A stretch of DNA of 46,185 nucleotides from IMG/VR virus record IMGVR_UViG_3300045988_161343; one strand, written 5' to 3'. Both the position numbers and the translations under genes were made by a program. Below the pieces are notes generated by a model, which did no database searches, was not told where the DNA came from, and was given only the letters and a program-made list of their open reading frames with translations. Of the stretch, positions 183-45,163 are shown one piece after another; positions within the stretch are counted from its first letter, which is position 1; each line of letters starts with the position of its first letter. Source of the DNA: a virus.

Positions 183-809
183 TTATTTTAGATAATTATT
201 TATCTAAAATTTTTTTTTATGTCTCATGATACCTATAAGGCTATAATCTACCAGCTATATTTCCAATAGGCTAATACAATGTAATAAGTGCAAGCTCCAT
301 ATCCTCTATATCTCTACTTTTACATCTTTAGTTTTAATTAATGGCTTATACTCAATTATGTCGCCTTTCTAAATAAGTTTATATACATATAATTCTTTAC
401 TATCTGCTCTTAATTTAGCCTAATGTTCCTTAAATCGTTTCTCAAAATCATATGTACTACCAATATAATATAAATGTCCATTTACATAAATACCATATAC
501 TCCACCTTCAACCATTTGCCTTTTCTTTTCTTCTTTTCCAAACAATTCATTAAATTCTTCTTGGGTACATACAATATCAAATGCTTTATTCCTAAACTGC
601 CAAAATGGTTTATTTAATTTTTTCTAATGTTCTGCAATTATTTCTTTATAGTTATCCTATACTATCCAAGCTCTTTTTAAGCCTGATGGAGTAGCATAAT
701 TCTTAATAGGTCCATTTAATTTCTCTATAATTTGCACTAATTCATTATAATTCTTTATATTTGTGCTAAATCCAAAACTATCAATTTTCAATTCAATTTT
801 TCCTTTCAT
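183..809 (-). CDS. GIY-YIG family endonuclease (homing-endonuclease-like), 208 aa, with in-frame TAG codons read as sense
   Basis: Minus-strand translation contains GGVYGIYVNGHLYYIGSTYDFEKRFKEH, the GIY...YIG...R motif. The ORF from ATG at 809 to TAA at 185-183 is continuous only if about 6 TAG codons are decoded. Confidence 0.5.
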
Positions 810-839: not shown

Positions 840-1135
840 TCAATACTGCCATTCAAGAAAACACCCCGTTATGTCCTATTTTCCCCGAAGGGGTAAATGG
901 GACATTTTGTCTGTCTCAATGAGACATTTTGATAAAAATGGGACATTGGGACGGGACATCTTCTTTACTTCGCTTATGTCCCATATGTCCCAATGTCCCA
1001 TTTTACTTAAAATTTTAAATAAAACATTTAGTGCTTATGTCCTTATGTCCCATTTTATCTATGATATTCCATTTAAAATGGGACATTTCTCGTGTCCCAT
1101 TTTTTTGGGACATTTATTGCTTATGTCTCAAAAAT
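840..1135. repeat. Array of ~15 copies of a GGGACAT/ATGTCCC core, often as AAATGGGACATTTT, in both orientations; iteron/operator-like
   Basis: Repeated ttatgtcc, aatgggacatttt, gggacattgggacgggacat, atgtcccatatgtcccaatgtccc and similar. The plus-strand ORF 763-1152 over it is judged spurious. Confidence 0.6.
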
Positions 1136-1628
1136 TAAATTCATTTTTCTAATTAACAAATGTTCCTTTTAATACTTTATCACTTATTTTCTTTATACTT
1201 TCTGCGTCCCCTATACCTTCACGGCGTCCTAATGTTTTTCTACTAACTGTTATATTATATAATTCCTAACACATTTGTATTACATCATTCTATGTAGGTT
1301 TTTTATTCTTCTTTTTAGTTGCTTCAACTACAGCATTTAACATCTATCCATCAGTAATTTTTTCTTTTTCTCCGCCTTTAGCCCCTGAAGCAGCCTTTTG
1401 TTCACTAACCTCTTTAGATTTATCAATAGTAAGTTTCATAGACTATAACAACATCATAATAATTCCATAATCTTTATCATTCTCATCAGGCTCAATACCA
1501 TATAATCCATAATTAGTTAATGCACTATATAATTTATATTTTAATTCTACATCTTCATTCTATTCAATAGTTTCTCTCATATTAGCCCAGAAGGTAAATT
1601 TTTCTTTATTCGGCTTTTCAACTGCCAT
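1128..1628 (-). CDS. HTH DNA-binding protein, 166 aa, needs read-through of 5 in-frame TAGs and ends at TGA
   Basis: SD GGAGG lies 9 nt upstream of ATG at 1628. C-terminal ...ELYNITVSRKTLGRREGIGD resembles a resolvase/sigma-region-4-type HTH. If TAG were a stop the ORF would be 22 aa. Confidence 0.45.
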
Positions 1629-12152: not shown

Positions 12153-12192
12153 AAATAATATTATATAATATTTATATAATAAAGGAGGAAAT
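12153..12192 (+). promoter_or_regulatory. Variant of the conserved promoter element (ATATTATATAATATTTATATAATAAAGGAGG)
   Basis: Variant 2 also recurs at 16771, 28537 and 34517. Confidence 0.5.
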
Positions 12193-12197
12193 ATTAT

Positions 12198-13355
12198 ATG
12201 AGTTATTTATTTACCAGTGAGAGCGTTTTTGCCGGTCATCCTGATAAGGTTTGTGATTAGGTAAGTGATGCTATTCTGGATTATGTCCTCCAGCTTGATC
12301 CTGATGCCCGAGTAGCTTGTGAATGTACTATTAGTCCAGGTCTTTTCCACATAATGGGAGAGATTACAGCTAAAACAGAACAATCTATTCCTTATCAGGA
12401 AATTGCAAGAGAGACTTTAAGGTTTATTGGTTATGACAATGATGAAGCAGGATTTAACTGCGACACTTGTTCATATATTATTAATGTAGTAAATCAATCC
12501 CCTGACATCGCTGCGGGTGTCGATAGAGATGGTGCTGGAGATCAAGGCATGATGTTTGGTTATGCAACTAACGAAACAGAAAATTATATGCCTATTGCCC
12601 AGCAGCTTGCTAACAATATCTCGGTCATTATGTTTAGTAAGTATAAAAATGATTTGCTACCTTGGGCGTTACCTGACGGCAAATGTCAGATAACTGTCCA
12701 ATACGATGATGATGGCAACTTTGAAGGGGTAGATACAATTGTCGTATCGGCCCAACACAAAGACAAGTATAGTATTAAGGAAATAACGCCCGATATTACG
12801 AACATTTGTAATATTGCCCTTCAAGGTTATGCCATTAAAAAAGATTGTAAATTTTATATTAACCCAACAGGTAAGTTTGTAAAGGGCGGACCTGCGGCTG
12901 ATACCGGATTAACAGGACGTAAAATCGTTGTAGATACATATGGTGGTTATGCACCACATGGTGGCGGAGCATTTAGCGGTAAAGATAGTTCTAAAGTAGA
13001 TAGATCTGGTGCTTATATGGCACGTTATGTAGCTAAAAATCTTGTAGCTTCTGGTGTTTGTGATAAATGTATGATTCAAGTTGCTTATATTATTGGGCAG
13101 ACAGAACCTGCATCTATTGATATTAATTGTTTTGGCACAGAAAAGAAACCTATCGCTGAAATTCTTGAAGCAGTTAATCAGACATTTGATTTTGCACCGC
13201 GTAGTATTATTCATAAATTTGATTTAAAGCATACTCGCTATTTACCCTATGCTTGCTTCGGTCATTTTGGTCGCATTGAATGTAATAGCCCTTGGGAACA
13301 GCTCGATAAAGTAGAAGAATTAAAAACAATTTTTGATTTTAAAAAGGAGAACTAA
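12198..13355 (+). CDS. metK: S-adenosylmethionine synthetase (MetK) homolog, 385 aa, with one in-frame TAG at a conserved Gln position
   Basis: MSYLFTSESV..GHPDKVCD(TAG)VSDA matches the MetK motif HPDKIADQISDA. Downstream GAGDQGMMFGYA, KGGPAADTGLTGRKIVVDTYGG and GGGAFSGKD are MetK hallmarks. The track only shows the part after the TAG. Confidence 0.8.
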
Positions 13356-27705: not shown

Positions 27706-28533
27706 ATGAAAGTTTGTTTAAGACATAATCAAGAAGAACAATATCTCCAAAAGGCAGAATAGATTGAGGTTAAATGGGCATTTATTGACCATCTTCTTGA
27801 TTTAGTAGAAAAATATCCTGATAAAGATTTTGTCATAGATGCTCCAAAAGGCAAACCAATGGATTGGAAAAGTATAGCCACTTGTAAGGCCGGCCTACAT
27901 TAGGGCCGCACCTTCTATGTTCGGTTGCATGATTTAAATCCTTTGCTTACATTACGCTGGATGGAGAAATATGATCTTAAATTTTTTTATAGTGAACCAG
28001 CAAAAACATATTATGAGCTGTATAATCTAAAAAAATTAGGTGTATCATATGCTTATATTGATGCTCCTATTTTCTTTGATTTAAATGAAGTAAAAAAAAT
28101 AGATATTCCATTAAGACTTGTGCCAAATCGCGCATATATTCAAGGGCATATTCCACAAATGAGTGGCTTACATGGCACTTGGGTTCGTCCAGAAAAACTT
28201 GATATTTATAAACCATATTTTGATGTTTGTGAATTTGAAAATGATGGACCTACACAAGAACGAGCCTTCTACCGCATTTATTTTGAAGATAAGTCTTGGC
28301 CCAATGACATGAATTCATTAATTTTTGGACTTAATACTAATATTGATGATAGATTGGTGTATGAAGGTCTTGATGAAATGCGTCTTAATTGTAGACAAGT
28401 ATGTGAAACACCTAAACCTTATTGCCAAATGTGTGATAAAGTATTGTATTTTGAACGGGCCGGACGTCAATGGGCCAAGGAGTATATTGCCGAACATGAG
28501 GGAGAAGACCAAGAACAGATAAGCCCTAATTGA
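27706..28533 (+). CDS. Hypothetical protein, 275 aa, with two in-frame TAGs; track shows only the 3' part
   Basis: AAGGAG + ATG 27706. The frame runs continuously through TAG at 27760 and 27895 into track ORF 27925. Confidence 0.45.
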
Positions 28534-28587
28534 TTATTTAATAAAATTATTATATAATATTTATATAATAATAGAAGGGAATAAGAA

Positions 28588-29586
28588 ATGGGTAAAAAAG
28601 TTTTAGTTCCTGATTTTACTGAAAATTGTAGAGGGATTTTGGAAGGGTTATTCAAGATTAGTGAAGTAGGTCTTTTGAAAGCTCTCGGTGATTTTGTATC
28701 TAATAAATATTCTAATGTAGAGATTACAGAAGATTATGTATATGCTGAAGGTAATATTCCTGTTATGCTTATTGCACATGTAGATACTGTATTTAGACAA
28801 CCAATTCGTCAATTTACTTATAATGAGAAAAGAGCTGTTTATAAAGGCAAGGAAGGTCTTGGAGCAGACGATAGAGCAGGTGTTTTTGCGATTATTCAGA
28901 TTTTACGCAAAAAGTATAGACCTTATGTTCTTTTTACAACAGATGAAGAAATGGGTGGCTATGGTGCGCATATATTTGTTGAAGCACATCCAGTAGCTCC
29001 AAATATTAAGTACATGATTGAGCTTGATAGAGCTGGTGAAAGAGATTGTGTCTTCTATGAGTGTGAAAATTTTACATTTATAGATTATGTTGAAAGTTTT
29101 GGTTTTAGACAAGCAATTGGATCATTTACAGATATTAGTATTATTATGCCTGAATGGGAAATTGCCGGAGTAAATTTATCAGTTGGCTATCATCATGAAC
29201 ATACTCAAAATGAAGATTTGCATATTAGAACATTGTATAATACAATTAATAAAGTATGTAAAATGCTTGATGATATTGAAAATGCAGATAAATATAAATT
29301 TATCCCCAGCAAGGAATATCTTCAGTGGATTACATTGACTAATAAATATCATATGCCTTATGATTTTGATGATGATAAACTTATTAATTGTAGTTTTTGT
29401 AATCAGTTGTATTATGAGTGGGAAGATTTTCCTCTTGATATTGATGGAGTAAAGGTTCATGTATGCCCTGAATGTTTGGCACTTGATCCTAATATTCATC
29501 AATGTGAAAGGTGCTATAATTTATTTTATTCAAATAATATGAAAGAAAGAGTATGTGATAAATGTCGAGTCCCTGTTGTAATTTAA
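28588..29586 (+). CDS. M20/M28/M42-type metallopeptidase-like protein with C-terminal Cys4 zinc ribbons, 332 aa
   Basis: MLIAHVDTVF ... GADDRAGVFA motifs (HxD, GxDD) of the zinc-peptidase/deacylase fold. C-terminus CSFCNQ...CPEC...CERC...CDKC. Confidence 0.45.
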   Translation: MGKKVLVPDFTENCRGILEGLFKISEVGLLKALGDFVSNKYSNVEITEDYVYAEGNIPVMLIAHVDTVFRQPIRQFTYNEKRAVYKGKEGLGADDRAGVFAIIQILRKKYRPYVLFTTDEEMGGYGAHIFVEAHPVAPNIKYMIELDRAGERDCVFYECENFTFIDYVESFGFRQAIGSFTDISIIMPEWEIAGVNLSVGYHHEHTQNEDLHIRTLYNTINKVCKMLDDIENADKYKFIPSKEYLQWITLTNKYHMPYDFDDDKLINCSFCNQLYYEWEDFPLDIDGVKVHVCPECLALDPNIHQCERCYNLFYSNNMKERVCDKCRVPVVI

Positions 29587-29666
29587 ATGAAATTAAAGAA
29601 CAAGTAAAGAAGGTTATTGCCTATTCATAGGGACTGGACATTAACCTTTTAAATATTGATAAATTA

Positions 29667-30987
29667 ATGAATGATTGGGAAGAGAATAAATGCAAATTTT
29701 ATAGCAGACTTCCTGGTAATAAATTAATTTATCAAAGTCATGCACCTATTACAATGTCTATTTCAGAAGATGATAAAAAAGCTGAATTAGATTGTTTTAT
29801 TGACAACATTCGTTGGCGTTATGGCTTATTTGAATTAAGAGATTTTGTTGAAAATAATAGAAAAAATTTTTATAATAATATTTTAAGCGAAGATTATTCA
29901 ATGAATAATGGAACTATCATTCCAAAAGGAATGAAAATAATTAAAGCATTTAAATATTTTGTAGAAGATAAGGAAATTCTTACTGAAATACAAGATAAAG
30001 CTAGTATGCTTATTCAAAATACAAAAATTAGTGGATATTTTTGTATGTCAGTTCATCCATTGGATTATCTTAGTTTAAGTGAAAATACGCATAATTGGCG
30101 GTCATGTCATGCTCTTGATGGAGAATATCGTGCTGGTAATTTATCTTATATGGCAGATAATTGTACGATTATATGTTATATTAAGAGTGAACATGATGCG
30201 GTTTTACCTAGATTTCCAGATGATGTACCATGGGCAGATAAGAAGTGGCGTATGCTTCTTCATGTATCTGATGATGATACTATGGTTATTTCAGGTCGGC
30301 ATTATCCTTATGAAAGTAAAGGATTACAAGATTTTGCTCTTGAACTGTATGAAACATTTTTCGGGCAAGGATATCGGTTTACCGATTGGTGTCATGAAAA
30401 ATATAATACATTTACAATAAATGATAAAATCTTTTCTAATGAAGTTCGTTTATTACCTACTGGGTATATGATGACCCCAGATATTAAGGTTATTGTTGAC
30501 CCAAAAAATCCTTTACATTATAATGACCCTCTTCATTCTACTGTATATGACTATTGGTTTAGTATTGCTTATAGTGAACCTTATTGGCATGAAGAAGGTA
30601 TTCCGCAAGATAAATTAATTCTTCCAAGAACTCGTACCACTACTAAAGTTAATATAGGACATGATGTAAAATGTTGTATTTGTGGTAAAAATGATTGTGT
30701 TTTAACAGATACGATGCTTTGTATTGATTGTGAACTTAAATATGGTACAGAAGAAACAGAAGATTTTACTTTCTGTAGAGAATGCGGTAGACGTATTTAT
30801 ATTCCTGAAGCAATATCATTAGATGATGATGATGGTTATGTATGCCGTAGTTGCGGAGACAATTATTAGATATGTGATAATTGTAATATGTATTATGATA
30901 AAAAAGATTTAATTTATGATGAAGAAAACAATGCTTACTATTGTGAAGCTTGTTATGATGAAATTTTATTTGATAGGGAGAATGAAT
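29667..30987 (+). CDS. Paralog C of the HPLDY/zinc-ribbon family, about 440 aa. TAG at 30867-30869 is read through into a further Cys4 ribbon ending at TAA
   Basis: MSVHPLDYLSLSENTHNWRSC core. Extension ICDNCNMYYDKKDLIYDEENNAYYCEACYDE continues the CxxC module. Confidence 0.5.
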
Positions 30988-30988
30988 A

Positions 30989-31297
30989 ATGGCAAAAGGT
31001 AGTATTGCTAAAGATGCTGTTGTAGAAAAAATTGCAGAAGCATTTGGTGAAGATTTCCTCGGATCTTATGATAAAAAGTATTATGTGCGAGCTAAAGAAA
31101 ATGGACAATATATTCAGATTGCAATTAGTCTAACGTGTCCGAAAACTCCTGTAGAAAATTTTGGTTCTATGGATTTTGGTAATAATGAACTTAATTTTGA
31201 AAATGGAGCAACAATTCAGTCTGTAAAGAAGGCTACAGAAATTAGTCCAGAAGAAGAAGAAAATTTAAAAGCTTTAATTGAAAAGCTTGGTTTATAA
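30989..31297 (+). CDS. Hypothetical protein, 102 aa
   Basis: ORF track. Confidence 0.5.
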   Translation: MAKGSIAKDAVVEKIAEAFGEDFLGSYDKKYYVRAKENGQYIQIAISLTCPKTPVENFGSMDFGNNELNFENGATIQSVKKATEISPEEEENLKALIEKLGL

Positions 31298-31330
31298 GAG
31301 AAAGTCAAATTGACTTTCTCTTATTTTTAT
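31292..31330 (+). terminator. Rho-independent terminator
   Basis: gagaaagtcaaattgactttctc followed by TTATTTTTAT. Confidence 0.6.
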
Positions 31331-31404
31331 GTTATAATTATTTATATAGGGCATATTATATTAATTAAATAATTAAATTTCTTATATAAGAAAGGAATAA
31401 AAAT

Positions 31405-31686
31405 ATGAAGAAGATTATAATTCCTCAAGAAGAAGTAAATTATCTTTAGAAATTAAATTATGAAATTGAAGCTAGAAAAAATTTATGTCAATTTTTAATT
31501 AGACAAAATATTAGAAATAAAGCTTTTAATGATTATCATAATGAGTATATAGAATTATTTGCTGAATATGAATTAGCTAAATTAGAATTAGAAAATAATT
31601 ATATCAAACCAGAAATTGGGAATCAAACTTGCAATTGGAATTTAGATTTTTATACAAATGAGGTAATTATTGATGTTATTTCCTAA
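31405..31686 (+). CDS. Small protein, 93 aa with one TAG, first gene of the rSAM cluster
   Basis: SD AAAGGA; continuous frame ending at TAA; overlaps the rSAM start. Confidence 0.4.
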
Positions 31687-33013
31687 AATAAGCCACATTC
31701 CTGAAGAATTTTCTGATTTTATAGGTCGTTTATATCCTGAAGATTGTTTAAATTCTTAGTCTGTATTTACATTAACATTTTAGGTTACAGATGATTGTTG
31801 TTTAAATTGTACTTATTGTTATCAAGGGCATAAAGGTAAACATAAATTATCTTTTGAAACAGCTAAACAGATGATTGATTAGATATTAACCAGAGATAAT
31901 AAAATTATTGGTTATATTGATTCTTATAAAATACCAGGAGTAATAATAGAATTTATAGGTGGAGAGCCATTTTTAGAAATTGAATTAATTGATTAGATTA
32001 CTGATTATTTTATTAATAAAATGATTGAATTGCGGCATCCTTGGGCTACTAAATATAAAATTTCAATTAGTTCTAATGGTATTTTATATTTTGAACAAAA
32101 AGTACAAGAGTATATTAAAAAAAATAATGAAAATTTAAGTTTATCAATTTCTATTGATGGAAATAAAAAATTACATGACGCTTGTAGAGTTTTCCCTGAT
32201 GGTAGTGGTAGTTATGATAAAGCATTGTCTGCCGCATTACATTATAGCCATAATTATAATAAATGGATTGGGAGTAAAATGACTATCTCTCCATTTAATA
32301 TAGATTATTTATATGACGCTGTTTTAGAAATGATAAACAATGGTTATAGTCAAATCAATCTAAATTGTGTGTATGAAAAAGGTTGGGAACTTAACCATGC
32401 CACTACATTATATTATTAGTTAAAAAAAATTGCTGATTATTTATTAAATAATGATTTGTGGGATAAAGTTTATTTATCTATTTTTTATATTAATGATGGA
32501 AGTAAAAATTTATCTAATGATAATTGGTGTGGCGGGAATGGTCGTATGTTAGCCTTAAATTGGAAAGGTAAATATTATCCATGTTTACGTTATATGGAAG
32601 ATAGCATAAGTAATCAGCCAGAATATTATATTGGAGATATTTATTAGGGAATAGGCCAAGATAATTTAACCATCAATAGATTAAAAGATTTATCTGAAAT
32701 AACAGTTATTAGTCAATCTCCTCAAGAATGTTTAGATTGTGAAATTTCTGGAGGATGCTCTTGGTGTACAGCTTATAATTATCAAGAAACAGGTAATGTT
32801 AATAAAAGAGTTACTTATATTTGTGATATGCATTATGCTACAGTTCTAGCTTCTTTATATTATTTAAATTCTATTTTAAAAAAAATAAACTCGAATAAAC
32901 GATTTAAATTTAATGGAGATATGGAAAAAGCATTAAAAATTATCTCTTAGGATGAATATAATATAATAAAGGAGACAATGACAAATGAAAATAGGAACGA
33001 CAATAACTTCTGA
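31673..33013 (+). CDS. Radical SAM enzyme with C-terminal SPASM/twitch domain (anSME / RiPP-maturase-like), 446 aa with about 7 in-frame TAGs; fragmented in the track
   Basis: CCLNCTYC = CxxxCxxC cluster, GGEP motif. C-terminal Cys clusters CGGNGRMLAL...YYPCLRY and CLDCEISGGCSWCT. Frame is continuous from ATG 31673 to TGA 33011-33013 only with TAG as sense. Confidence 0.65.
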
Positions 33014-33635
33014 TAGATTCAATGAATTAAAGAAAAAAATAAAGGCTGAATGTTTACGTCGTAAATATACCGGTAGTGTAAGTTCATATGGAGGGACTTC
33101 TTATGATTATACTACTTAGCCTGATAATGGAAAAGTTATTTCAAAAGAACACATAACAAAACTGGTAGAACCTATGGCGGCAATAAATATTGAAAATCAG
33201 AATGAAAATATAAATGTTATTAAAGATGATGATTTAAGTACATTAGAGGCAAAAATTACAGCTTATCAAGCTATGGGATTAACTGATTCGAATACTGGAT
33301 GTTCAGCTTATTGCACTGGATTATGTTCTACCAGTTGTAGCGAAAGTTGTGGAGTACAATGTTAGGAAACTTGTTTAGGTAGTTGTAAGAATACTTGCCA
33401 AGGAGGCTGTCAAAACACTTGCAGAGGCGGATGTCAAAGCAGTTGTAGTGGTAGCTGTAGCGGATGTAGTGGTTCTTGCTCAGGTGGATGCTATACAGGA
33501 TGTAGTGGATGCAGTGGTAGCTGTACAAGACATTGTGCTAACGATTGTACTGGATTGTGTGGAGGAAGTTGTTCAGGTTTATGTACAAGCTGTACTGGCA
33601 CATGTAGTGGCACAGGTAGAAATGAACCATTATAA
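32985..33635 (+). CDS. Cysteine-rich repeat peptide, 216 aa: ~100-aa leader followed by ~27 tandem C-x3-C units; precursor-like
   Basis: SD AAGGAGA 9 nt upstream. Core is CSAYCTGLCSTSCSESCGVQC(TAG)ETCLGSCKNTCQGGCQNTCRGGCQSSCSGSCSGCSGSCSGGCYTGCSGCSGSCTRHCANDCTGLCGGSCSGLCTSCTGTCSG; two in-frame TAGs. Confidence 0.55.
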
Positions 33636-33753
33636 TTTAAAAATATTTATCGAAAATACATATAACTGTAAGATATATTATATGTATCTTATACAAGATA
33701 ATATTTTATTTTGTATAAGTAATTATAAGAATATAAATTTTCAAAAATATAAT

Positions 33754-34323
33754 ATGGATATTTAGATTTTATCTGTTTATGAATATTTATGTCAAAAATA
33801 TATTTTACATAAGGATATATTAAAACAATATAAAGGTATAGAATTATATAAAATTATGGAAATTCAAGATAAAATTTTTATTAATAGATATAAATTATTA
33901 TTGTAGATTATTAATAATAATTATAATTTTGATAATTAGTTAATATACACTGATTTTAATAATTTTAATTTTGAACAAAATATTAGTTATATAAATTATT
34001 GTTTAAAATTGCTATTTAATAATTTTAAAAAAATAGATAAACAATTTTGGAAAATTTTAGATTAGATTTATTTTTTAATTAATGGTAAAACTAATTTATT
34101 TTTATTGTTGGGAAATTTTTATTTGAATAAAAGTAATTTATAGCAATTTACTGAAGAAATAAAAAAAATTCCTGGAATTAAAGAATAGCTCTCTTTTAGT
34201 TATACAGCTTTAAATTTAGCTATTGAAATTGATAAAGTTGCAGAAAATAAAAATTATCTTAATGAATTAATTGAAATTATTGATAATCATTCACAAGAAA
34301 AAATTTATAAATTTGATATTTAA
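33754..34323 (+). CDS. Very AT-rich hypothetical protein, about 189 aa, with 6 in-frame TAG and no TAA or TGA
   Basis: In an AT-rich stretch, 570 nt free of TAA and TGA in one frame is unlikely by chance. The N-terminal part of track ORF 33448-33765 is in the same frame. Confidence 0.4.
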
Positions 34324-34742: not shown

Positions 34743-34891
34743 CAAATAAATGCTCTCGTAGCTCAATTGGTCAGAGCCGGCGACTTATCCAAGATTAGTT
34801 TAAATGGCAAAATAGTCTATGCGCAAGAAAGATGTAAGTTCAAATCTAACATCTTGGGCCAAATCGCCAGATGTGGGTTCAAATCCCGACG
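34743..34891 (+). tRNA. tRNA carrying a ~73-nt tRNA-like insertion inside the anticodon loop; anticodon after excision is ambiguous (UAU, UAA or CAA depending on junction)
   Basis: Outer: gctctcg ta gctc aattggtca gagc c ggcga cttat[...]aa tcgcc agat gtggg ttcaaat cccga cgggagc a cca. Insert 34780-34852 is ccaagat...gtaag ttcaaat ctaac atcttgg g cca (acceptor-like stem + T-arm + CCA). Confidence 0.45.
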
Positions 34892-34926
34892 GGAGCACCA
34901 TATTCCAATAGAAAGGAATTAAAATA

Positions 34927-35166
34927 ATGAAGTTGACAAATATTAAGCAGGTTGAAGATTTTATCGCAGCAGTTAATCGCGCACATAGTAATGTATGGCT
35001 GGTTAGTCCACAAGGTGATAGATATAATATGAAATCTGCACTTTCACAGTATATCGCGCTTGGCGCATTACTTGGTCAGCATGGTGATGAATTGGAACTT
35101 TTCTGTGATAGTAAGCAAGATGAAGGTTTGTTTATTGAATTTTTTGTTCGTCACCCTGAAGTTTAA
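34927..35166 (+). CDS. Small hypothetical protein inside the tRNA array, 79 aa
   Basis: ORF track; SD AAAGGAATTAAAATA ATG. Confidence 0.45.
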   Translation: MKLTNIKQVEDFIAAVNRAHSNVWLVSPQGDRYNMKSALSQYIALGALLGQHGDELELFCDSKQDEGLFIEFFVRHPEV

Positions 35167-35234
35167 TTGAAAAATTAAAAAAAATATTATAAAATATATA
35201 TACAAAATAAATGAGAAATAAATTCTCATTTGTA

Positions 35235-35312
35235 TGGGACAGTAGCTTACGAGGTCGGAGCATTGGTCTGAAAAACCAAAGGATGGAGGCTCGATACCTC
35301 CCTGTCCCACCA
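35235..35312 (+). tRNA. tRNA-Phe (anticodon GAA)
   Basis: gggacag ta gctt acgaggtcg gagc a ttggt ctgaaaa accaa agggat ggagg ctcgata cctcc ctgtccc a cca. Preceded by a promoter element and the aatgagaa...ttctcatt hairpin. Confidence 0.7.
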
Positions 35313-35390
35313 ATTGGTCTTATACATGGGGTTTCCGATTTGAACTAGGCAGATTAGTCACCTGCCGTTGGCAATAGACCAATTAAAAAT
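35313..35390 (+). ncRNA. Structured ~76-nt element closed by a 9-bp stem (AATTGGTCT/AGACCAATT) with an internal ggcag-attagtcac-ctgcc hairpin; not a canonical tRNA
   Basis: Immediately 3' of tRNA-Phe. Perfect 9-bp terminal helix. Function unknown. Confidence 0.25.
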
Positions 35391-35563
35391 AAACTGAGGC
35401 AAAGGGAAATCGGGTTTTAATGTATAGCTATAAAGAAATTTTATAGTTAGCTATGATGAACTTCATAGCAAAATCCTCTTGTAATCAAGCTAATTGGGAG
35501 AGGGGTAGCGCGGGAACGGGGAGAAGCGCGCTATAAAAGGTGAAATACTTCTTTCCACCATAT

Positions 35564-35639
35564 GCCGGTGTAGCCGAATGGCATAGGCGAATGATTTAGG
35601 ATCATTAATCTGAAGGTTCGAGTCCTTTCACCGGTACCA
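35564..35639 (+). tRNA. Class-I (short variable arm) tRNA with anticodon UAG; formally Leu(CUA-reading) but lacks the long variable arm of Leu tRNAs
   Basis: gccggtg ta gcc gaatggcata ggc g aatga tttagga tcatt aatct gaagg ttcgagt ccttt caccggt a cca. Confidence 0.55.
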
Positions 35640-35721
35640 ACAGTGAAGTAGTAGCTATATTCACTATAATCAAGGCTCGGTGGTTGGTGGCTCCATCGTT
35701 ATATAAATAAGCCATATATAT

Positions 35722-35792
35722 TACTTCTTGGTGTAATGGAAGCATGCTGCCTGAAAGAGGCGGAGGTATTGGTTCAATTCCAATAGAAGGAT
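35722..35792 (+). tRNA. Atypical tRNA-like gene (T-arm attgg-ttcaatt-ccaat). Anticodon arm is ctgcc-tgaaaga-ggcgg without U33, or a 6-bp stem with a 5-nt loop; no encoded CCA
   Basis: tacttct tg gtg taatggaag cat g ctgcc tgaaaga ggcgg aggt attgg ttcaatt ccaat agaagga t. One A-G mismatch in the acceptor. Confidence 0.3.
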
Positions 35793-36142
35793 TAATTAAA
35801 GCTGGGAAATAATAGTCGCCCATAACTAATTATTTAATATAGGACTATTATTAAAGGTTATTTAAGTTAAAGAAACGCGGTTGAAGTTATTACTTACTTG
35901 ATTATAAAATAACATGACCGCAAGACGAGTGTTTGAAGCTTGTCTATAAACAAATTCTTCATATGTTGTCTTTTTATACTTACTCTTTGGTTGTTTCTTG
36001 ACATATAAGTAAAAACGGAAAGGGAGTTAAAGGTTTAGCTATAAAACCGGTTTGTTTTTAATAAGATTTTTAAAATTAGGTGACAAAATCTTATTTGAGT
36101 GATGCTGCTCAAGAGGGTCCGGAACCTCTAAAATGCGTATAT

Positions 36143-36275
36143 GCGCCAGTGGCCAAGTGGTATGGCACCTGCCTTTGTGGGATTGATGTAAGTAGCATTT
36201 TAATGTATTGGTTCAAATCCAATATTCCGCACCATAAGCAGGGCAACGCGGGTTCGATCCCCGCCTGGCGCACCA
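36143..36275 (+). tRNA. tRNA with Gln-like D-arm carrying a 58-nt tRNA-like insertion in the anticodon loop; the residual loop could read UUU, UUG, UAU or CAU depending on junction
   Basis: Outer: gcgccag tg gcc aagtggtat ggc a cctgc cttt[...]taa gcagg gcaac gcggg ttcgatc cccgc ctggcgc a cca. Insert 36177-36234 is gtgggat tg atg-taagtag-cat tttaatgt attgg ttcaaat ccaat attccgc a cca. Confidence 0.45.
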
Positions 36276-36596
36276 GGTCAAGTTTGAGAAATTTCATAGA
36301 GCATCGCTGACGTTAAATGGTTCTTATATGAAAACGCGCAATTAGTATAAGATAGCAAAATTCTCGTAGTTCATCCATTAGAGAACCTTAAAGAGTAATG
36401 GAATAAGATTATATCATGAGAAATTATGTATATAGTTTTATTTAATTTGGTGTTGAACCAAATATTGTGAAATTCAAGCGAGTCTACCTTATTAGCCCTA
36501 CTGTAATAGCCAGTCTAATATGCCCTCCATACCCAGTGAGGATTTTTATAAAAGTCTATTTAATTTTTCTTGGCAGCTTAATTAAATAGACTATAT

Positions 36597-36673
36597 GCGG
36601 GATTAGCTCAGCTGGTTAGAGCGTTTGGTTTACACCCAAGAGGTCATTGGTTCAAATCCAATATCCTGCACCA
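36597..36673 (+). tRNA. tRNA-Val (anticodon UAC)
   Basis: gcgggat ta gctc agctggttag agc g tttgg tttacac ccaag aggtc attgg ttcaaat ccaat atcctgc a cca. Preceded by a 13-bp hairpin at 36555-36595. Confidence 0.75.
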
Positions 36674-36726
36674 ATAAATTTGAAAATTTAAAAAAAATAT
36701 TATATAATAATAAAGGAGATATTTGA

Positions 36727-36900
36727 AATGGCAACTACTAAGAAACCTGCAATTAAAATGGATAGCACAGAGTTGAACGAGTATCTTCTGTTCCGCCGTC
36801 GTAGATCTATTGTTCCGGCCAAGAAAGGTAAGGGTATGGAATATGATAGGGCGAAAGAAAAAGAGAAATCTGAAAAAATGATTTCTGATGAATAAATCGG
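36727..36900 (+). CDS. Small basic protein, 57 aa, within the tRNA array
   Basis: Promoter variant + SD AAAGGAGA; MATTKKPAIKMDSTELNEYLLFRRRRSIVPAKKGKGMEYDRAKEKEKSEKMISDE. Below track cutoff. Confidence 0.4.
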
Positions 36901-36990
36901 GTGTCTCTTTTCGAGAATTTATATAACGCATACTAATAACTTTGGAGTTGCGTCCAACGGTCAGTGAGTAGTTTTCAGGCTGACATTTAT

Positions 36991-37066
36991 CGGGCTGTAG
37001 AGTAATTGGCTAATTCAGAAGCCTTTCACGCTTCAAACCTGGGTTCGAATCCCAGCAGCTCGACCA
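36991..37066 (+). tRNA. tRNA-Glu (anticodon UUC)
   Basis: cgggctg ta gagt aattggcta attc a gaagc ctttcac gcttc aaac ctggg ttcgaat cccag cagctcg a cca. Confidence 0.75.
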
Positions 37067-37074
37067 TATGGTGC

Positions 37075-37151
37075 TATAGTTCAGTTGGCTAGAATGTCGG
37101 ACTGTCTCTCCGAAGGTCAGGGGTTCGAGTCCCCTTAGCATCGCCACATGC
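37075..37151 (+). tRNA. tRNA-Asp (anticodon GUC)
   Basis: ggtgcta ta gttc agttggcta gaat g tcgga ctgtctc tccga aggtc agggg ttcgagt cccct tagcatc g cca. Confidence 0.75.
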
Positions 37152-37247
37152 TTTTTCCTATGTAAACAATTTTGAAACATAGAACTTGATGGAGCGTTCT
37201 ATTAGTCTGATGCCTGCATTAGATTAAGTTTTATAACCATCATATTT

Positions 37248-37321
37248 GGGGACATAGTTTATGGTAGGAAAACGTTGAATTTAATTCAAAATCGAGGGTG
37301 CAATTCCCTCTGGCTCCACCA
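37248..37321 (+). tRNA. Atypical tRNA. The anticodon arm folds either as 5 bp + 5-nt loop or 4 bp + 7-nt loop ATTTAAT (anticodon UUA, ochre-type); assignment unresolved
   Basis: ggggaca ta gttt atggtagg aaac g ttgaa tttaa ttcaa aatc gaggg tgcaatt ccctc tggctcc a cca. One A-G mismatch in the acceptor. Confidence 0.35.
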
Positions 37322-37446
37322 TTTATGAAAGACAATACAGCAATTATAAATTTGCTTTGGGAGCCGTGTGTTGTAGGTTCGAGTCCTACTGTCTGGTCGA
37401 AGATCGGATATAGCGTAATTGGTAGCGCAACGTATAAAAATTGTCT

Positions 37447-37519
37447 TGTTAATATTGCGGGATCGTCAAGTGGTTAAGACACCAGCCTCATAAACTGGTT
37501 ATCATGGGTTCGAATCCCA
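37447..37519 (+). tRNA. tRNA-Met/Ile2-type (anticodon CAU), no encoded CCA
   Basis: tgcggga tc gtc aagtggttaa gac a ccagc ctcataa actgg ttatc atggg ttcgaat cccac tcccgca a. 31-39 is a C-A mismatch. Confidence 0.6.
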
Positions 37520-37729
37520 CTCCCGCAAGAGATACATTAATCAAGCCTCCACGGGGCGTATCTTGGGTAATGCTAATTGATTAAATGAGTATAATTAATA
37601 ATGTTTTATGAAAAGCCCACACAGCAACTTTTAATAGGATAAATAAGAAATTCTGCAAAAATTTTTTAGAGTTGGTTCAAATCCAGCAAATGATTTTAGG
37701 GCTTTGTTAAAATTGTTAAGGAGAAAATA

Positions 37730-37915
37730 ATGAAGTTTAATCCAGGAGATAAGGTCTGGTGTAAGAGGTACGGTAAGGGTAAGTGCCGCAAGGCTGATAA
37801 TAAAGATAATTTTATGACTTATCTTTTCAGATTTTATGATGGCACTTTGATTTGGATGCCGAAACATCTGGCTGAACATTTTGTAAGAGTTCGTTCCACC
37901 GAGGCCACGGTGTGA
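37730..37915 (+). CDS. Small basic protein, 61 aa
   Basis: ORF track; SD TAAGGAGAAAATA ATG. Confidence 0.45.
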   Translation: MKFNPGDKVWCKRYGKGKCRKADNKDNFMTYLFRFYDGTLIWMPKHLAEHFVRVRSTEATV

Positions 37916-38064
37916 ATATAAAGTCCGGTTATAGGAAATCCTGTCATTAGGCGGCAGGCTACCGGTAATCCTTTCTTATATATTTAAATATGTAAGGAAC
38001 AAAAACTATACAATAGATAGAGTTTTTACGCCTTGGCGCAATGCTTGTTTTTTACTATCTATTT

Positions 38065-38165
38065 TTCTATATCTGTTGGGTTGGCTGAGAGGTCGATAGC
38101 GGCTGCCTGCTAAGCAGTTGTCCCTGGAAACGGGGACCAAAGGTTCAAATCCTTTACCCAACGCC
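38065..38165 (+). tRNA. tRNA-Ser (anticodon GCU), class II with long variable arm
   Basis: gttgggt tg gct gagaggtcgat agc g gctgc ctgctaa gcagt tgtccctggaaacggggacc aaagg ttcaaat ccttt acccaac g cca. Confidence 0.75.
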
Positions 38166-38171
38166 ATTATA

Positions 38172-38256
38172 TGTAGGAGTGCCAGAGTGGTCGATTGGGT
38201 TAGTCTCCAAAACTAATTGTAGCTACACGTCCAGGGTTCGAATCCCTTGCTCCTAT
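38172..38256 (+). tRNA. tRNA with anticodon CCA (Trp-type) but an unusually long, 15-nt variable region and a possible 8-bp acceptor stem
   Basis: gtaggag(t) gc ccag agtggtcga ttgg g ttagt ctccaaa actaa ttgtagctacacgtc caggg ttcgaat ccctt gctcctat g. Confidence 0.45.
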
Positions 38257-38659
38257 GCGTTATCAAGTAAGAGCCTTCCCGTGGCGATGATGTTTAAACT
38301 AATCTTACATTAACATACCCCTACTTTCGTATAATACGGTTAAACCTTGTCGAGGGCAAAGACAACAAGGTATTCCTTTCCGCCCCTCATATATTAAGAC
38401 TCATTTTCAGCAAACTTTTGCCTACAAAGGCTCTACAATACTTACTTATCAAATAATAGATGAAAAAGTATAATAAAGAAAATAAAGTATATTTTGAAAA
38501 GTTTTTTCTTTTTAGCTGGTTTAGTAAGCTAAATTCCGCGTTTTTATTTTGGCTTTTCAATGAGTCTTGTTTTTAAAATAATTGGTATCGCTAAGCTTCA
38601 TGGTAATTGTGGCGTATTTAAATCATAGATAGTTAAGGGTCTATAGCCAATTATGATAT

Positions 38660-38748
38660 GCGGAATTAACTTGCCCGGCGGTAAGCCTTGTCTTGAAAAC
38701 AAGTGGTCCTGTGATAGGGATGGGGATCGACACCTCAGTTCCGCGCCA
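38660..38748 (+). tRNA. tRNA-Ser (anticodon UGA), class II, atypical T-loop
   Basis: gcggaat ta a cttg cccggcgg taag c cttgt cttgaaa acaag tggtcctgtgatagggatg gggg... gttccgc g cca. Overlaps spurious track ORF 38653-38901. Confidence 0.5.
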
Positions 38749-38788
38749 CTCGTTTCAAATTCGTTCATTGCATTTCATCCTTTCTATA

Positions 38789-38830
38789 AAGATGGACTGA
38801 TTAGATTAATCAATCCATCTTTTTTTTTAT
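38789..38830 (+). terminator. Rho-independent terminator closing the tRNA array
   Basis: aagatgga-ctgattagattaatcaa-tccatct followed by TTTTTTTTT. Confidence 0.65.
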
Positions 38831-38980
38831 ATATTTTAAAGACAGTAGGTTATAGATTGCTCGGGCCGGCTTGGACCATTAAAACCGAATGCTTAAATTA
38901 AAATTCCATTTAAGAAATTTTCGGTCCAACAGGTATAGAGCAATATAAAATAATTTTAAATATGAAAGGAGAAGGACAAT

Positions 38981-39094
38981 ATGAAAATGTTTATTCTTTC
39001 ATATAAGGGCGGCAAAGATGGCGGCGATATTGACAAAGAAGATACTTCCAAGTCAACAGGCGGCTGGGATGGCGGCTCTATAGATGATGATTAA
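38981..39094 (+). CDS. Small Gly/Asp-rich protein, 37 aa, first gene of the late block
   Basis: SD AAAGGAGAAGG; MKMFILSYKGGKDGGDIDKEDTSKSTGGWDGGSIDDD. Confidence 0.35.
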   Translation: MKMFILSYKGGKDGGDIDKEDTSKSTGGWDGGSIDDD

Positions 39095-39111
39095 AGAAAG
39101 GAGAACACGAG

Positions 39112-40185
39112 ATGGCTGAAATTATTAAATTAAGACGCGGTAAATCAACTAGTTGGTCTAAAAAGAATATAGTCCTGGCAGCTGGTGAAATCGGCGTAGA
39201 ACTTGATACACATTAGATTAAAGTCGGCGATGGTTCAACCCCTTGGAATGAACTATCTTATGTAGGCGGAACTAAAGTTGTTAATGTTCAAGAATACACT
39301 GATAATCCAGCAGTTGTAGATGACGTGCCTTATCAATCTATTGATGTAGCATTTGTGAAGGCTCCAGCAGGAAGTACAATTCGTCTTAATGCTAACTTTG
39401 ATAACAGTGTTTCTATTGATAAAGCATTGACTATTGAATTAAATGGTAATGATATTATCAATAATGAAAAAACTCCAATAGATATCAAAGCAAATGGCGA
39501 TTTAACTATTAAGGGCCAAGGCACTATTGAATGTAATAAGAATGAAAATGCCGCAGTTTTTAATAATGGTAATATTACTATTAATAATGGTAAATTACAA
39601 CGTACCACTGATGTATCAGGCAATGGCTATTATACTGCTGTTAATCATGGTACTATGACAATCAATGGTGGCATGTTTATGAGTGGTGGCGAATTTTCTA
39701 GCATGATTGAAAATGGCTATTGGGATTATCACGCTGGTAATACTACTAATGGCTATGTTCAAGGCCAAAATGCTGAAATGCCTACATTAACTATTAATGA
39801 TGGTACATTCGCTGGTGGTTTATATGCTATAAAAAATGATGATAATGCTGTTTTAAATATTAATGGCGGCACATTCTATAATACTATTCTTGCTAATGGT
39901 AAGTCAATAACTATCACTGATGGGTATTTTGAAAATAGTAAGCCAAGTCAAGGCGAATATAATTTTTATCTTCGTAAATTAAGTGAAGATTTAAATCCTC
40001 AAAATACATATATTAGTGGCGGTACATTTATTACTGCACAAGATAAGAATTTCAAAGTTGAGGGCGATCCTCATATTGAAATTAGCGGTGGCCGTTTTAA
40101 TAGAGAATTAGATCCTTCTTATCTAGCTCCTGGCTATAGACAAGTACTTGTCAATGGCTTCTATACTGTCTAGAAGGAGGAATAA
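39112..40185 (+). CDS. Tail spike / fibre protein with conserved N-terminal anchor domain and a parallel beta-helix (pectate-lyase-like) repeat region, 357 aa, one in-frame TAG
   Basis: MAEIIKLRRGKSTSWSKKN...ELDTH(TAG)IKVGDGSTPWNEL is paralogous to the N-termini of 40189, 40727 and 44704. Repeats INGGMF, INDGTF, INGGTFY, ISGGTF, ISGGRF. Track starts at 39325 (GTG) after the TAG. Confidence 0.6.
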
Positions 40186-40188
40186 TCT

Positions 40189-40704
40189 ATGGCTGATATC
40201 ATCAAGTTCAAAAGAGGTCGATCAACTACATGGCGTGAAAAGAACTTATTGCTTAAGGATGGCGAGCCTGGATTTGAATTAGATACTCATAAACTGAAAA
40301 TTGGTGATGGTAAAACCTTATGGAATGATTTACCATATATCGGTGGCGAAAGTGGTACAATTGATCTTCCTGATAATGTAATGGAATTTTTAGGCACAGT
40401 TGATGCACTTCCAGCTACTGCTGAAGATGGAGAAATGTGTATTTATGATGGTAAATTATATATTTACGATGGTAAATGGACAACTACAGAAACTTCTTCT
40501 TCAGCACAAAATTCTTTCAATTCTTTAGTAGATGCAATTAACTATATTACTTAGCATAATTGTGTTGGTCAAATTGTATCTATTTTTTAGAATAATAAAT
40601 GGTTGCCTTATATTGTAGATGTAAATAATAATCTTGTACCTATTCAATATGGAGAAGATCATTATGATATTCTTAATGGCGGCAACGCAAATACTCTTAA
40701 TTAA
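40189..40704 (+). CDS. Tail fibre paralog with the same N-terminal domain, 171 aa, two in-frame TAGs
   Basis: MADIIKFKRGRSTTWREKN...ELDTHKLKIGDGKTLWNDL. Continues through TAG at 40552 and 40588 to TAA at 40702-40704. Confidence 0.55.
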
Positions 40705-40726
40705 TTTTATAGGAGGAAAATAATTT

Positions 40727-41950
40727 ATGGCTGAAAATATTCTTAATACTCGCATTCAAGTATTAAATGATACGGCTGAAGCTCTTAAAGCAAAAGGTAG
40801 TGCAGTCCCAAAAGCTGGTGAAATTGTTTACGAGAACGATACTCGTAAAATGAAAATCGGTGATGGTACTACTACTCTTGAAAACTTAAAATATTTTGGT
40901 GGCGAAGCCGCTCAAAATTTTGAAGCTATTCCAACAGGTGAAGAAACTGACGTTCAGGCTATTACTCGTATTGTAGCTTCTGCAGAACTTCACAATGGCG
41001 ATACTGCTATTGTAAAGCGTGTTATTACTGGCGATAAGACTTCTTATACTGCTTACGTATATGACGGTGAATGGAAAGCTATGGATGGCAATTATCGTGC
41101 TGATAATGTTTATTTTGATGATGACATTACTTATACTGTTGCTATTGGCACTTTAGCTAAACCATCTGGTTCTGCTAAATTTGCAGCTAAAGGTAAGAGC
41201 GTTGAACAGGTCCTTTCTACCTTAATGGCCAAGGAAGCTAATCCTTCTAAGTCTGATCCTGCTGTTAGTTTCAGCTCTACTAGCGGACTTGGTACATTTG
41301 AAATTGGCACGAAGAAGAATTTAACATATACAGCAGCTCTATCTGCTGGTAGTTATACTTATGGTCCAGCTACTGGTATTACAGCTCAGAGTTGGAGTGT
41401 AAAATGCACTGGTGTTGAAGATGTCCTTGCTACTGCTACTGGTTCTTTCGATAATGTTGTTGCTGAAGCAACAGCTAAAAAAATTACTGCAACCGCAACT
41501 TATGGCGACGGCACTATTCCTAAGACCAATCTAGGTAATTCTTATCCTGCTAGCCAGATTAAGGCAGGCTCAGCATCTAAAGATAGCAATGTCCTTTAGG
41601 GTGTCCGTCATATGTTCTATGGTCCTATAACTACTGATGCAGCTCTTGATAGTACTACTATTCGTGGATTAAAACATGAAGCTGCTAGTAAAAAGCCTAT
41701 TACTACATTTGGTGCAGGTGCTGGAGCAAAGAAAGTTGTTATTGCTTGTCCTGCTGGATATAATGTAAGTAAGGTTCTTATGCCTAGTGCTATGAATGCT
41801 GATGCTACTGCTAATTTTGTAAAGCAAGCTGGTACTGTTAATGTTGAGGGCGCTGAAGGATATACTGCAGCTCCTTATACTGTTTGGGTATATTAGCCTG
41901 CTGCAATTGATAGTACTGAAACTTATGCTGTCACAATTGGTTAATTTATA
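40727..41950 (+). CDS. Tail fibre protein, 407 aa, two in-frame TAGs (joins track ORFs 40727 and 41612)
   Basis: N-terminal ...GEIVYENDTRKMKIGDGTTTLENL domain; same frame through TAG 41597 and TAG 41894 to TAA 41948-41950. Confidence 0.55.
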
Positions 41951-41968
41951 AAGGAGGAATAATATAAT

Positions 41969-44668: not shown

Positions 44669-44703
44669 TATATATACTAGGGAGAGAGAAAGGGGAATAA
44701 AGA

Positions 44704-45045
44704 ATGGCTCAAAAAGAATTTAATACACGAATTAAATTAAAGTATGATACTTTAGATAAATGGTTAAAGAATACATCAGTTGTACTGCTTAAAGGCGAAA
44801 TTGGCTTATGCTATGTGCCGGCGATTACATCTGGTACAACGACCACAGCTCCTACTGTACTATTTAAAGTTGGTGATGGTACAACCACATGGGAAAAACT
44901 ACCTTGGGGTGCAGGGCTTGGAGCAGATGTCCCGGCATGGGCTAAGGCACCTGCAAAGCCATCTTATACCCTTGATGAAATAGGTGCTAATCCTGATACC
45001 AACTATGTAATTTTCGATTGTGGTTCTTCTACTATAAATATATAA
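44704..45045 (+). CDS. Tail fibre paralog (N-terminal anchor domain only), 113 aa
   Basis: MAQKEFNTRIKLKYDTLDKWLKNTSVVLLKGEIG...FKVGDGTTTWEKL. Confidence 0.55.
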   Translation: MAQKEFNTRIKLKYDTLDKWLKNTSVVLLKGEIGLCYVPAITSGTTTTAPTVLFKVGDGTTTWEKLPWGAGLGADVPAWAKAPAKPSYTLDEIGANPDTNYVIFDCGSSTINI

Positions 45046-45049
45046 GAAT

Positions 45050-45081
45050 AAAGACTCCATTTTGGAGTCTTTATTTTTTTT
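45050..45081 (+). terminator. Rho-independent terminator
   Basis: aaagactcc-atttt-ggagtcttt followed by ATTTTTTTTT. Confidence 0.65.
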
Positions 45082-45163
45082 TACCTGGACTAATTTTATT
45101 AATTTAATATTTTTATTTTTTATATAAATTTAGAATAAGAAACATTGAAAGGAGGAACTTTCA

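Follow-up and report, generated by a model that had tools for sequence, protein, structure and literature searches.

In-frame TAG codons, most likely read as glutamine, in metK and the late genes of a gut phage

Introduction

How could a phage make a full-length S-adenosylmethionine (SAM) synthetase from a gene whose twenty-first codon is TAG? The question is raised by the metK gene of IMG/VR virus record IMGVR_UViG_3300045988_161343, a stretch of 46,185 nucleotides which was analysed as a whole and which we call the window. An earlier note, made from the letters of this DNA, had proposed from an alignment of MetK that TAG is a sense codon here, most likely for glutamine (Gln). We suggest that the window is very probably part of a circularly permuted human-gut phage of ~185 kb in which some of the genes follow genetic code 15, with TAG read as Gln.

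Results

The metK gene lies on the + strand (12198..13355) and has 385 codons, a TAA stop (13353-13355) and a single in-frame TAG, which, as had been claimed, is present at codon 21 (12258..12260, in the context ...GHPDKVCD-TAG-VSDAILD...). A strong Shine-Dalgarno sequence, read by us as GGAGG (12184..12188), precedes the ATG at 12198 by 9 nt, and this fixes the start of metK upstream of the TAG. The translated open reading frame (ORF) contains all of the MetK motifs that the earlier note had quoted (GAGDQGMMFGYA, GRKIVVDTYGG and GGGAFSGKD), and the catalytic motifs GHPDK, GAGDQG and GGGAFSGKD are readable in it. With the TAG masked, PF00438, PF02772 and PF02773 each match over the whole profile (Pfam E-values 1e-34, 1e-33 and 2e-59), and the match of the N-domain, residues 3-102, runs across the TAG codon. 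E. coli MetK (from the PDB) aligns with the phage protein over residues 3-376 (E=3e-114) and places the Gln of GHPDKIADQISDA at the TAG codon; peptides spanning the TAG would take the form VCD-X-VSDAILDYVLQLDPDAR or VCDQVSDAILDYVLQLDPDAR. The first in-frame ATG 3′ of the TAG is codon 52, which lies beyond the GHPDK motif, so a separately expressed downstream fragment, a case that the earlier note had raised against itself, is not credible.

Compared with a relative that keeps the TAG (L022), metK has 50 synonymous and 4 nonsynonymous codon differences, and codons 1-40 have zero nonsynonymous changes; these counts indicate purifying selection both before and after the TAG. With its three Pfam domains present end to end, the description of metK as full length and not a pseudogene was thus well founded. 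The TAG is kept in 4/4 of the closest relatives (97-99% protein identity), and in the nearest TAG-free MetK (P0002 / L102; 70% identity, same gene neighbourhood) codon 21 is CAA. A public protein collection already holds the phage MetK with Q where the DNA reads TAG (P0001 / L103). The closest bacterial MetK homologs are those of Clostridia; blastn with metK found distant metK genes only, at no more than 70% identity.

The Gln at this site had been called universally conserved, and this was not upheld. Among 80 viral metK loci codon 21 encodes Arg in 49 and Gln in 25, is TAG in 4, and encodes Met in 1 and Ile in 1, while in the best 120 database homologs residue 21 is Q in 89, N in 9, L in 8, A in 6, R in 3, I in 2, K in 1 and T in 1. 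One MetK alignment is thus not enough to fix the residue, because the codon varies among homologs; nor can it tell recoding from an amber mutant, since CAG -> TAG is a one-step nonsense mutation. The statement that this single alignment assigns TAG to Gln has to be withdrawn for both reasons; what survives of the alignment check is that the TAG lies inside the conserved N-domain, opposite the E. coli Gln, in a column that is not universally Gln.

The case for a sense TAG is carried instead by the window as a whole, where nearly every gene lies on the + strand and strong Shine-Dalgarno sites are the rule. With TAG as sense, the 70 + strand genes stop at TAA (53) or TGA (16) and never at TAG, one gene running off the window, and 0 of the ~73 genes of the window need TAG as a terminator. 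In-frame TAGs number 58 in 21 genes: 45 in the 70 + strand genes and 13 in two minus-strand genes. By a greedy ORF call on the window, the coding fraction rises from 79.0% with table 11 to 88.4% with TAG as sense, and the number of ORFs of at least 300 aa rises from 8 to 12, so that the comparison of tables 11 and 15 which the earlier note had proposed came out in favour of recoding. Within the 27.6-34.4 kb block the coding fraction climbs from 64% to 91%, and within the 38.5-46.2 kb block from 76% to 85%. Recoding of TGA was also considered and was rejected: 16 genes stop at TGA, and the coding fraction with TGA as sense is only 81.7%.

Which amino acid TAG encodes is best seen in a radical-SAM peptide maturase of the CXXX-repeat target family (31673..33013, +; assigned from Pfam Radical_SAM and homolog names), a gene with 7 TAGs whose columns we scored in 109 distant homologs (~50-58% identity). 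The TAG at residue 37, directly before the CxxxCxxC motif, is Gln in 106/109 homologs; that at residue 108 is Gln in 71/109; that at residue 249 is divided between Gln (53/109) and Glu (54/109); and the remaining four columns are variable. The mean Gln frequency is 0.33 in the TAG columns, compared with 0.46 at the gene's own CAA/CAG codons and at most 0.06 at its K, E, R, T, S, D, N and L codons, and the best-fitting residue for the 7 columns is Gln, 3.2 log units above Glu and Lys. Maturase homologs from NCBI and JGI, translated with table 11, have Q at the TF-Q-VTDxC position (the invariant column), so the Gln column does not stem from homologs that were themselves translated with code 15.

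In 25 related viral loci the codon opposite a window TAG is TAG in 41 cases, Lys in 36, Gln in 29 and Thr in 24, and the TAGs of relatives pair with window Gln codons above every other codon class. The combined likelihood from relatives puts Gln best and Lys second, a result that is only supportive because the sequences are related. The TAG at 41894 is CAG/CAA in 16/18 relatives, and at sites 41597, 40171 and 11298 TAG, CAA and CAG exchange among the closest relatives; TAGs at variable positions say nothing about the residue. With many genes that have an in-frame TAG, none that ends in TAG, and the Gln columns of the radical-SAM enzyme, TAG is, as far as sequence comparison can tell, a sense codon, most likely Gln, with TAA and TGA as stops; on this point the original proposal has held.

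The TAGs are unevenly spread. Counting + strand genes only, split at 27.6 kb and with the two TAG-rich minus-strand genes excluded, there are 7 TAGs in 7,871 codons before the split (0.89 per 1000; 3.6% of Gln-type codons) and 38 in 4,736 codons after it (8.02 per 1000; 26% of Gln-type codons), a nine-fold higher density in late genes (Fisher p = 1e-10). TAG recoding is biased to late/structural genes on the + strand. Off-frame TAG has the same frequency in early and late + strand genes, and relative to it in-frame TAG is ~16-fold rarer in early genes and ~2.5-fold rarer in late ones; such early-gene avoidance is what one would predict if the early genes have to be translated in a cell with the standard code. 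It is also the pattern described by Borges et al. (10.1101/2021.08.26.457843), in which early genes stay readable in a standard-code host. The early + strand genes include those for an RNA ligase, a polynucleotide kinase (PNK)-like ATPase, metK, an RlaP nucleotidyltransferase and a phosphoesterase; the late ones include those for the maturase, a Cys-rich peptide and tail fibres. Of the 7 early/middle + strand TAGs, 4, including that of metK, lie within the first 10% of the ORF (binomial p = 0.003), which is a hint only, because the starts of genes 17029 and 2656 are uncertain.

The late TAGs fall into two + strand blocks. The first (27706..34323) comprises genes 27706-28533 (2 TAGs), 29562-30989 (2), 31405-31686 (1), 31673-33013 (7; the maturase), 32985-33635 (2) and 33622-34323 (6). 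The second (38560..46185) is a tail-fibre/structural block with 18 TAGs, in genes 38560-38901 (2), 39112-40185 (2), 40189-40704 (2), 40727-41944 (2), 41969-44668 (4) and 45149-46185 (6, running off the window end), and its proteins match Pfam Mtd_N and PHROG tail-fibre families. Exceptions to the early/late pattern are two genes on the minus strand which are TAG-rich although they adjoin TAG-poor early genes: a GIY-YIG endonuclease-like gene (183..809; 7 in-frame TAGs; public gene call and Pfam GIY-YIG) and a DUF6291 gene (1128..1628; 6 in-frame TAGs). A strongly recoded homing endonuclease was also noted by Borges et al. (10.1101/2021.08.26.457843). The one further clear minus-strand gene, 1824-1976, is TAG-free.

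A decoder for TAG was sought among the tRNA genes. The window has an array of about 12 of these (34752..38258, +; 9-11 by ARAGORN, 12 by Rfam), and the decoder is not in the window, because no tRNA of this array carries a CUA anticodon; a scan of the window for CUA-anticodon hairpins found matches only inside coding sequence, none of them tRNA-like. Relatives do encode a tRNA(CUA) (L001, L002, L009-L011, L013-L015, L257, L258, L260, L261, L263-L265 and L270). In a close relative, IMG/VR contig 3300045988_152007 (metK 97% identical), a second tRNA cluster lies ~17-21 kb past the position of the window end, and in close relatives the order of this cluster is Thr-Pro-Gln(UUG)-(Tyr)-CUA-Leu(UAA)-Gly, with a tRNA(CUA) of 75 nt in L258, L260, L263, L264, L265 and L270 and of 74 nt in L261. 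More distant relatives have a tRNA(CUA) of 74-76 nt or of 90 nt, located in the first array.

Of 11 distinct CUA tRNAs called by ARAGORN in relatives, the long-arm type included, 10 have an unpaired U1-U72 together with G73; in the exception, that of L260, G1 faces A72 and G73 is kept. U35 and A37 are common to all of them. The unpaired 1-72 position, G73 and U35 are features that we take to resemble the glutaminyl-tRNA synthetase identity set of E. coli tRNA-Gln/supE. The overall similarity of these tRNAs to other phage tRNAs does not reveal their isotype. The exact pattern TCCGGCGTRGCGTAATG, taken from the tRNA(CUA) of relatives, occurs at 23 loci in IMG/VR, none from the clade of the window, and the exact pattern CGGTCTCTAAAACCG is too generic for finding such tRNAs there; exact-protein look-ups towards the second cluster (P0334, P0342 and P0312) reached other contigs only, not the scaffold of the window. 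From the relatives we infer that the decoder of this genome is a phage supE-like tRNA(CUA) in the second tRNA cluster.

At the corresponding spot of the second cluster in another relative (L259:~14595-14670, IMGVR_UViG_3300045988_166471) there is a perfect CUA anticodon arm, CCGGT-CTCTAAA-ACCGG, in a non-canonical tRNA(CUA) with the T loop GGCAGCA. Since ARAGORN misses this tRNA, suppressor tRNAs of this phage family can escape standard detection.

Other tRNA genes of the array are interrupted. Mini-tRNA-like inserts of 49-123 nt split tRNA genes in the anticodon loop at 34752-34900 and 36143-36275 of the window, and also in L002, L003, L008-L011, L013-L016, L108 and L109. An acceptor-type helix of 7 bp is present in every insert and a T arm (GTTCAAATC) in most of them, and the inserts terminate 3′ in N-CCA or in one of the variants ACTA, CCCT and CCCA; the helix shows one compensatory pair change between the window and L008. 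Exact excision from the helix start to the CCA gives a canonical 7-nt anticodon loop: 34752-34900 then has the loop CUUAUAA, that of tRNA-Ile(UAU) and not of Met/Trp as called by ARAGORN, and 36143-36275 has CUUUUAA, that of tRNA-Lys(UUU), its anticodon stem being identical to that of an uninterrupted tRNA-Lys (L016:2227-2301). In relatives, removal of the insert yields Gln(UUG) or Pro(UGG). The ARAGORN isotypes (Trp, Met, Glu) of the interrupted tRNAs appear to be wrong. Alongside the inserts the phage encodes an RNA ligase and a PNK-like protein, and for excision RNase P might cut at the 5′ side and the 3′ side be processed, after which the phage RNA ligase (4156-5505) would join the ends. 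Our literature searches found no description of nested mini-tRNA inserts, which may be more novel than the TAG recoding.

A further tRNA-like gene (37248-37321; Rfam tRNA, 47.7 bits) is 97% identical in L016 and L008 and was missed by ARAGORN. Its acceptor end is like that of tRNA-Ala (G3:U70, A73, CCA encoded), and its anticodon arm, TTGAA-TTTAA-TTCAA, can be read with a loop of 5 nt or with one of 7 nt in which the anticodon is UUA. It was rejected as a TAG decoder, given its Ala-like acceptor, the fact that with a UUA anticodon it would read the main stop TAA, and the Gln given by the alignments. At 38173-38258 lies an 86-nt tRNA of type II shape, with a long variable arm, anticodon CCA (Trp), G73 and a CCA end that is not encoded; it has a weak match to tRNA-Sec (38.8 bits, below threshold) and is conserved in L008 and L016 with compensatory anticodon-stem changes. 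Long non-coding stretches lie between tRNA genes in 35312-38560, including 37365-37435, and one such gap has a weak match (29 bits, below threshold) to a YrlA/permuted-tRNA-like form, in which a T arm seems to precede a 5′ tRNA half. In relatives, ARAGORN calls a 'tRNA-Stop(tta)' with inserts of ~735 nt (L257:13632-14455, L265:8711-9533 and L270:4289-5111). These are probably tRNA-Leu(UAA) genes with a large insert, possibly a group I intron, which encodes a 148-aa Cys/His-rich ORF; L258, L263 and L264 have an uninterrupted tRNA-Leu(UAA) at the same place.

Among the neighbouring genes, a TAG-free RNA/tRNA-repair-type set lies in the early block (4156-5505, 15627-16172, 22334-23140 and 23338-24117), with as its products the RNA ligase (phrog_968, 9e-64), a PNK-like AAA_33 ATPase, an RlaP-family nucleotidyltransferase and a metallophosphoesterase. 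The same block holds a small auxiliary metabolic gene (3700-3975) with Pfam CM_2 (chorismate mutase type II) in a public collection. In the late region the maturase (31673-33013) forms a pair resembling a locus for ribosomally synthesised and post-translationally modified peptides with gene 32985-33635, whose 216-aa protein has CxxxC-type Cys/Ser/Gly repeats in its C-terminal half; 3′ of this pair is an AT-rich gene for a 233-aa protein (33622-34323, 6 TAGs), and in a relative a neighbouring gene matches PF27846 tSAM_targ_Cxxx_rpt. Two paralogous large proteins, 18777-20495 (572 aa) and 29562-30989 (475 aa), have a common core, S[IV]HPLDYL..S.N...W.SC, and Cys-rich zinc-ribbon-like C-terminal repeats; no Pfam family covers either of them, and a PHROG match (phrog_18912, unknown function) was obtained for 29562-30989 alone. 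Pfam and PHROGs gave no match for most small early proteins, nor for the 533-, 572-, 451- and 275-aa proteins.

In the European Nucleotide Archive, scaffold BENG15-1_SAMEA2784458_METAG-scaffold_109 (ERZ28572683; 185,023 bp) begins with the window, which makes up its first 46,185 bp. A contig of the same strain, k119_68296 (ERZ27250463; 184,981 bp), is 100% identical over 22 kb and is circularly permuted relative to it. The lineage is common in public gut assemblies of ~183-191 kb, labelled Peru, Nepal/Hadza and pig gut, among others. Megablast of window 25000-46185 (21 kb) against 50,697 GenBank/INPHARED phage records gave no match, and the best GenBank protein match of the 899-aa fibre protein is to Faecalibacterium phage FP_Brigit (41% identity over 60% of the query). 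The lineage probably infects Clostridia. There is no terminase or capsid gene within the 46-kb window.

Discussion

Several observations weigh against reading TAG as Gln by means of a phage suppressor tRNA. The window yielded no tRNA(CUA), release factor or aminoacyl-tRNA synthetase, the last two being sought in Pfam searches of 30 window proteins (14 of the 15 with at least 250 aa) and PHROG searches of 20, including 45149-46185. Segments of the same strain supplied by k119_68296, 10 kb upstream (L104) and ~9 kb downstream (L109) of the window, are likewise without a tRNA(CUA), and the suppressor has been seen in relatives only (metK 97% identical); the enzyme that charges it and the timing of TAG decoding are what we infer. 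At variable tail-fibre positions TAG is also found opposite Lys, Thr and Ser, Lys scores slightly above Gln when the likelihood from relatives is taken in one direction, and site 21 of MetK accepts Arg, Asn, Leu and Ala in homologs. A tRNA(CUA) is found in ~40% of published TAG-recoded genomes, and is thus typical, not obligatory.

With these points in view, the rival explanations can be weighed. If the standard code held throughout, metK would be an amber (CAG -> TAG) nonsense mutant or decaying pseudogene, giving a 20-residue product or two separate parts. This needs a single transition, at a site where many homologs have Gln, and the MetK alignment taken singly fits it equally well. However, the same TAG occurs in independent assemblies which differ at 28-50 synonymous and only 4-10 nonsynonymous codons, none of the latter in codons 1-40, and the MetK cluster has 970 member sequences; 57 more TAGs are in frame in 20 other genes while zero genes end in TAG; and a restart at codon 52 would come past GHPDK, whereas the ATG at 12198 has the strong Shine-Dalgarno site. 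We find this explanation barely credible. A host that itself reads TAG as sense, with the phage following it without any code switch or regulation, is also very improbable. Neither a release factor 2 nor an aminoacyl-tRNA synthetase was seen in the window, as such a host would allow; yet the ~16-fold avoidance of in-frame TAG in early + strand genes, against ~2.5-fold in late ones, and the tRNA(CUA) genes of the relatives both speak against it. The nearest bacterial homologs of MetK and the maturase come from NCBI-annotated records of Clostridia and Bacteroides, organisms that NCBI normally annotates with table 11, and we know of no bacterium that reads TAG as Gln. Standard-code hosts are also what Borges et al. 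(10.1101/2021.08.26.457843) infer for recoded phages.

That TAG is sense but stands for another residue (such as Lys, Glu, Trp, Tyr or pyrrolysine) is improbable too, but has a little more in its favour. Variable tail-fibre TAG columns are often AAA/AAG and ACT, Lys comes second in the likelihood, and in one small ORF (position 8006) TAG alternates with TGG between relatives. The tRNA(CUA) of L009-L011 and L013-L015 is 90 nt in length and has a long variable arm, a feature unusual in tRNA-Gln, and ARAGORN labels the CUA tRNAs 'Pyl'. Against this, the conserved columns give Gln (106/109, 71/109 and 53/109 in the maturase; 16/18 at 41894; CAA in the nearest TAG-free metK), 10/11 of the CUA tRNAs of relatives have the unpaired U1-U72 with G73, and no pyl genes were found by Pfam and PHROGs among the scanned window proteins. 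The Lys-like pairings at variable fibre positions leave a small residual doubt about Gln.

If TAG is read as Gln, we envisage that a phage-encoded supE-like tRNA(CUA), with its unpaired 1-72, G73 and U35, would be charged with Gln by host enzymes and would compete with host release factor 1 at TAG. Early in infection the host would treat TAG as a stop, and full-length MetK and the late proteins might be made only after the suppressor tRNA accumulates, so that TAG could act as a translational timer. Such a timer model has been put forward by Borges et al. (10.1101/2021.08.26.457843). Whether the TAG of metK is a deliberately placed translational gate, which holds back SAM synthetase until the suppressor tRNA has accumulated, is more doubtful, and we offer this as a tentative and rather unlikely idea; neutral drift among synonymous Gln codons is a tenable alternative. 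Were there such a gate, it would couple SAM supply to the TAG-rich late genes, the radical-SAM peptide maturase included, and an amber codon would then gate an auxiliary metabolic gene too, beyond structural genes.

In practical terms, annotation of this phage needs table 15, since table 11 breaks 21 genes, including metK, the radical-SAM maturase and all of the tail-fibre genes; and the 185-kb lineage is added to the recoded gut phages. Stop-codon-recoded phages had reportedly been described earlier, by Ivanova and colleagues in 2014. TAG -> Gln recoding, late-gene bias and phage suppressor tRNAs are already published, in keeping with the fit to known amber-to-Gln recoding that had been suggested for this locus, and our findings leave the known mechanism unchanged.

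The human gut phage phAss-1/'Phassvirus' (Babkin et al. 2023, PMC10607447) has a genome of ~136 kb with 28-36 tRNA genes, 2-3 of them tRNA-Sup(CTA), TAG in 28% of its ORFs, no dedicated aminoacyl-tRNA synthetase, and TAG aligned to conserved Gln; it differs from the phage described here in size (136 kb versus 185 kb), and our phage had no nucleotide match in the phage collection searched (where phAss-1 membership is unchecked). In crAss-like phages TAG -> Gln has been confirmed by metaproteomics with liquid chromatography and tandem mass spectrometry (Peters et al. 2022, PMC9523058). The reassignment is the same here, where it comes from alignments only, in a lineage that appears to be different. 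Code 15 has further been described in crAss-like, Lak, Garnet, Amethyst, Sapphire, Agate and Topaz clades (Borges et al., 10.1101/2021.08.26.457843). These gut phages share with ours in-frame TAGs in conserved genes, concentrated in late/structural ones, early genes compatible with the standard code, a lineage-encoded tRNA(CUA) with the same proposed timer, a large genome (185 kb here), gut origin and a probable Firmicutes-type host. Our phage differs in that no release factor 2 was seen in the window, that the suppressor tRNA is seen in relatives only, and that an auxiliary metabolic gene, metK, has its only TAG close to the 5′ end.

The classical Gln-inserting amber suppressor, E. coli supE, is a tRNA-Gln with its anticodon changed from CUG to CUA. 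The tRNA(CUA) of the relatives differs from it in being phage-encoded, and its low overall similarity to phage tRNA-Gln(UUG) suggests that it is not a recent copy of that tRNA; with supE it nevertheless shares the CUA anticodon, U35, A37, G73 and the unpaired 1-72 position, the features associated with glutaminylation.

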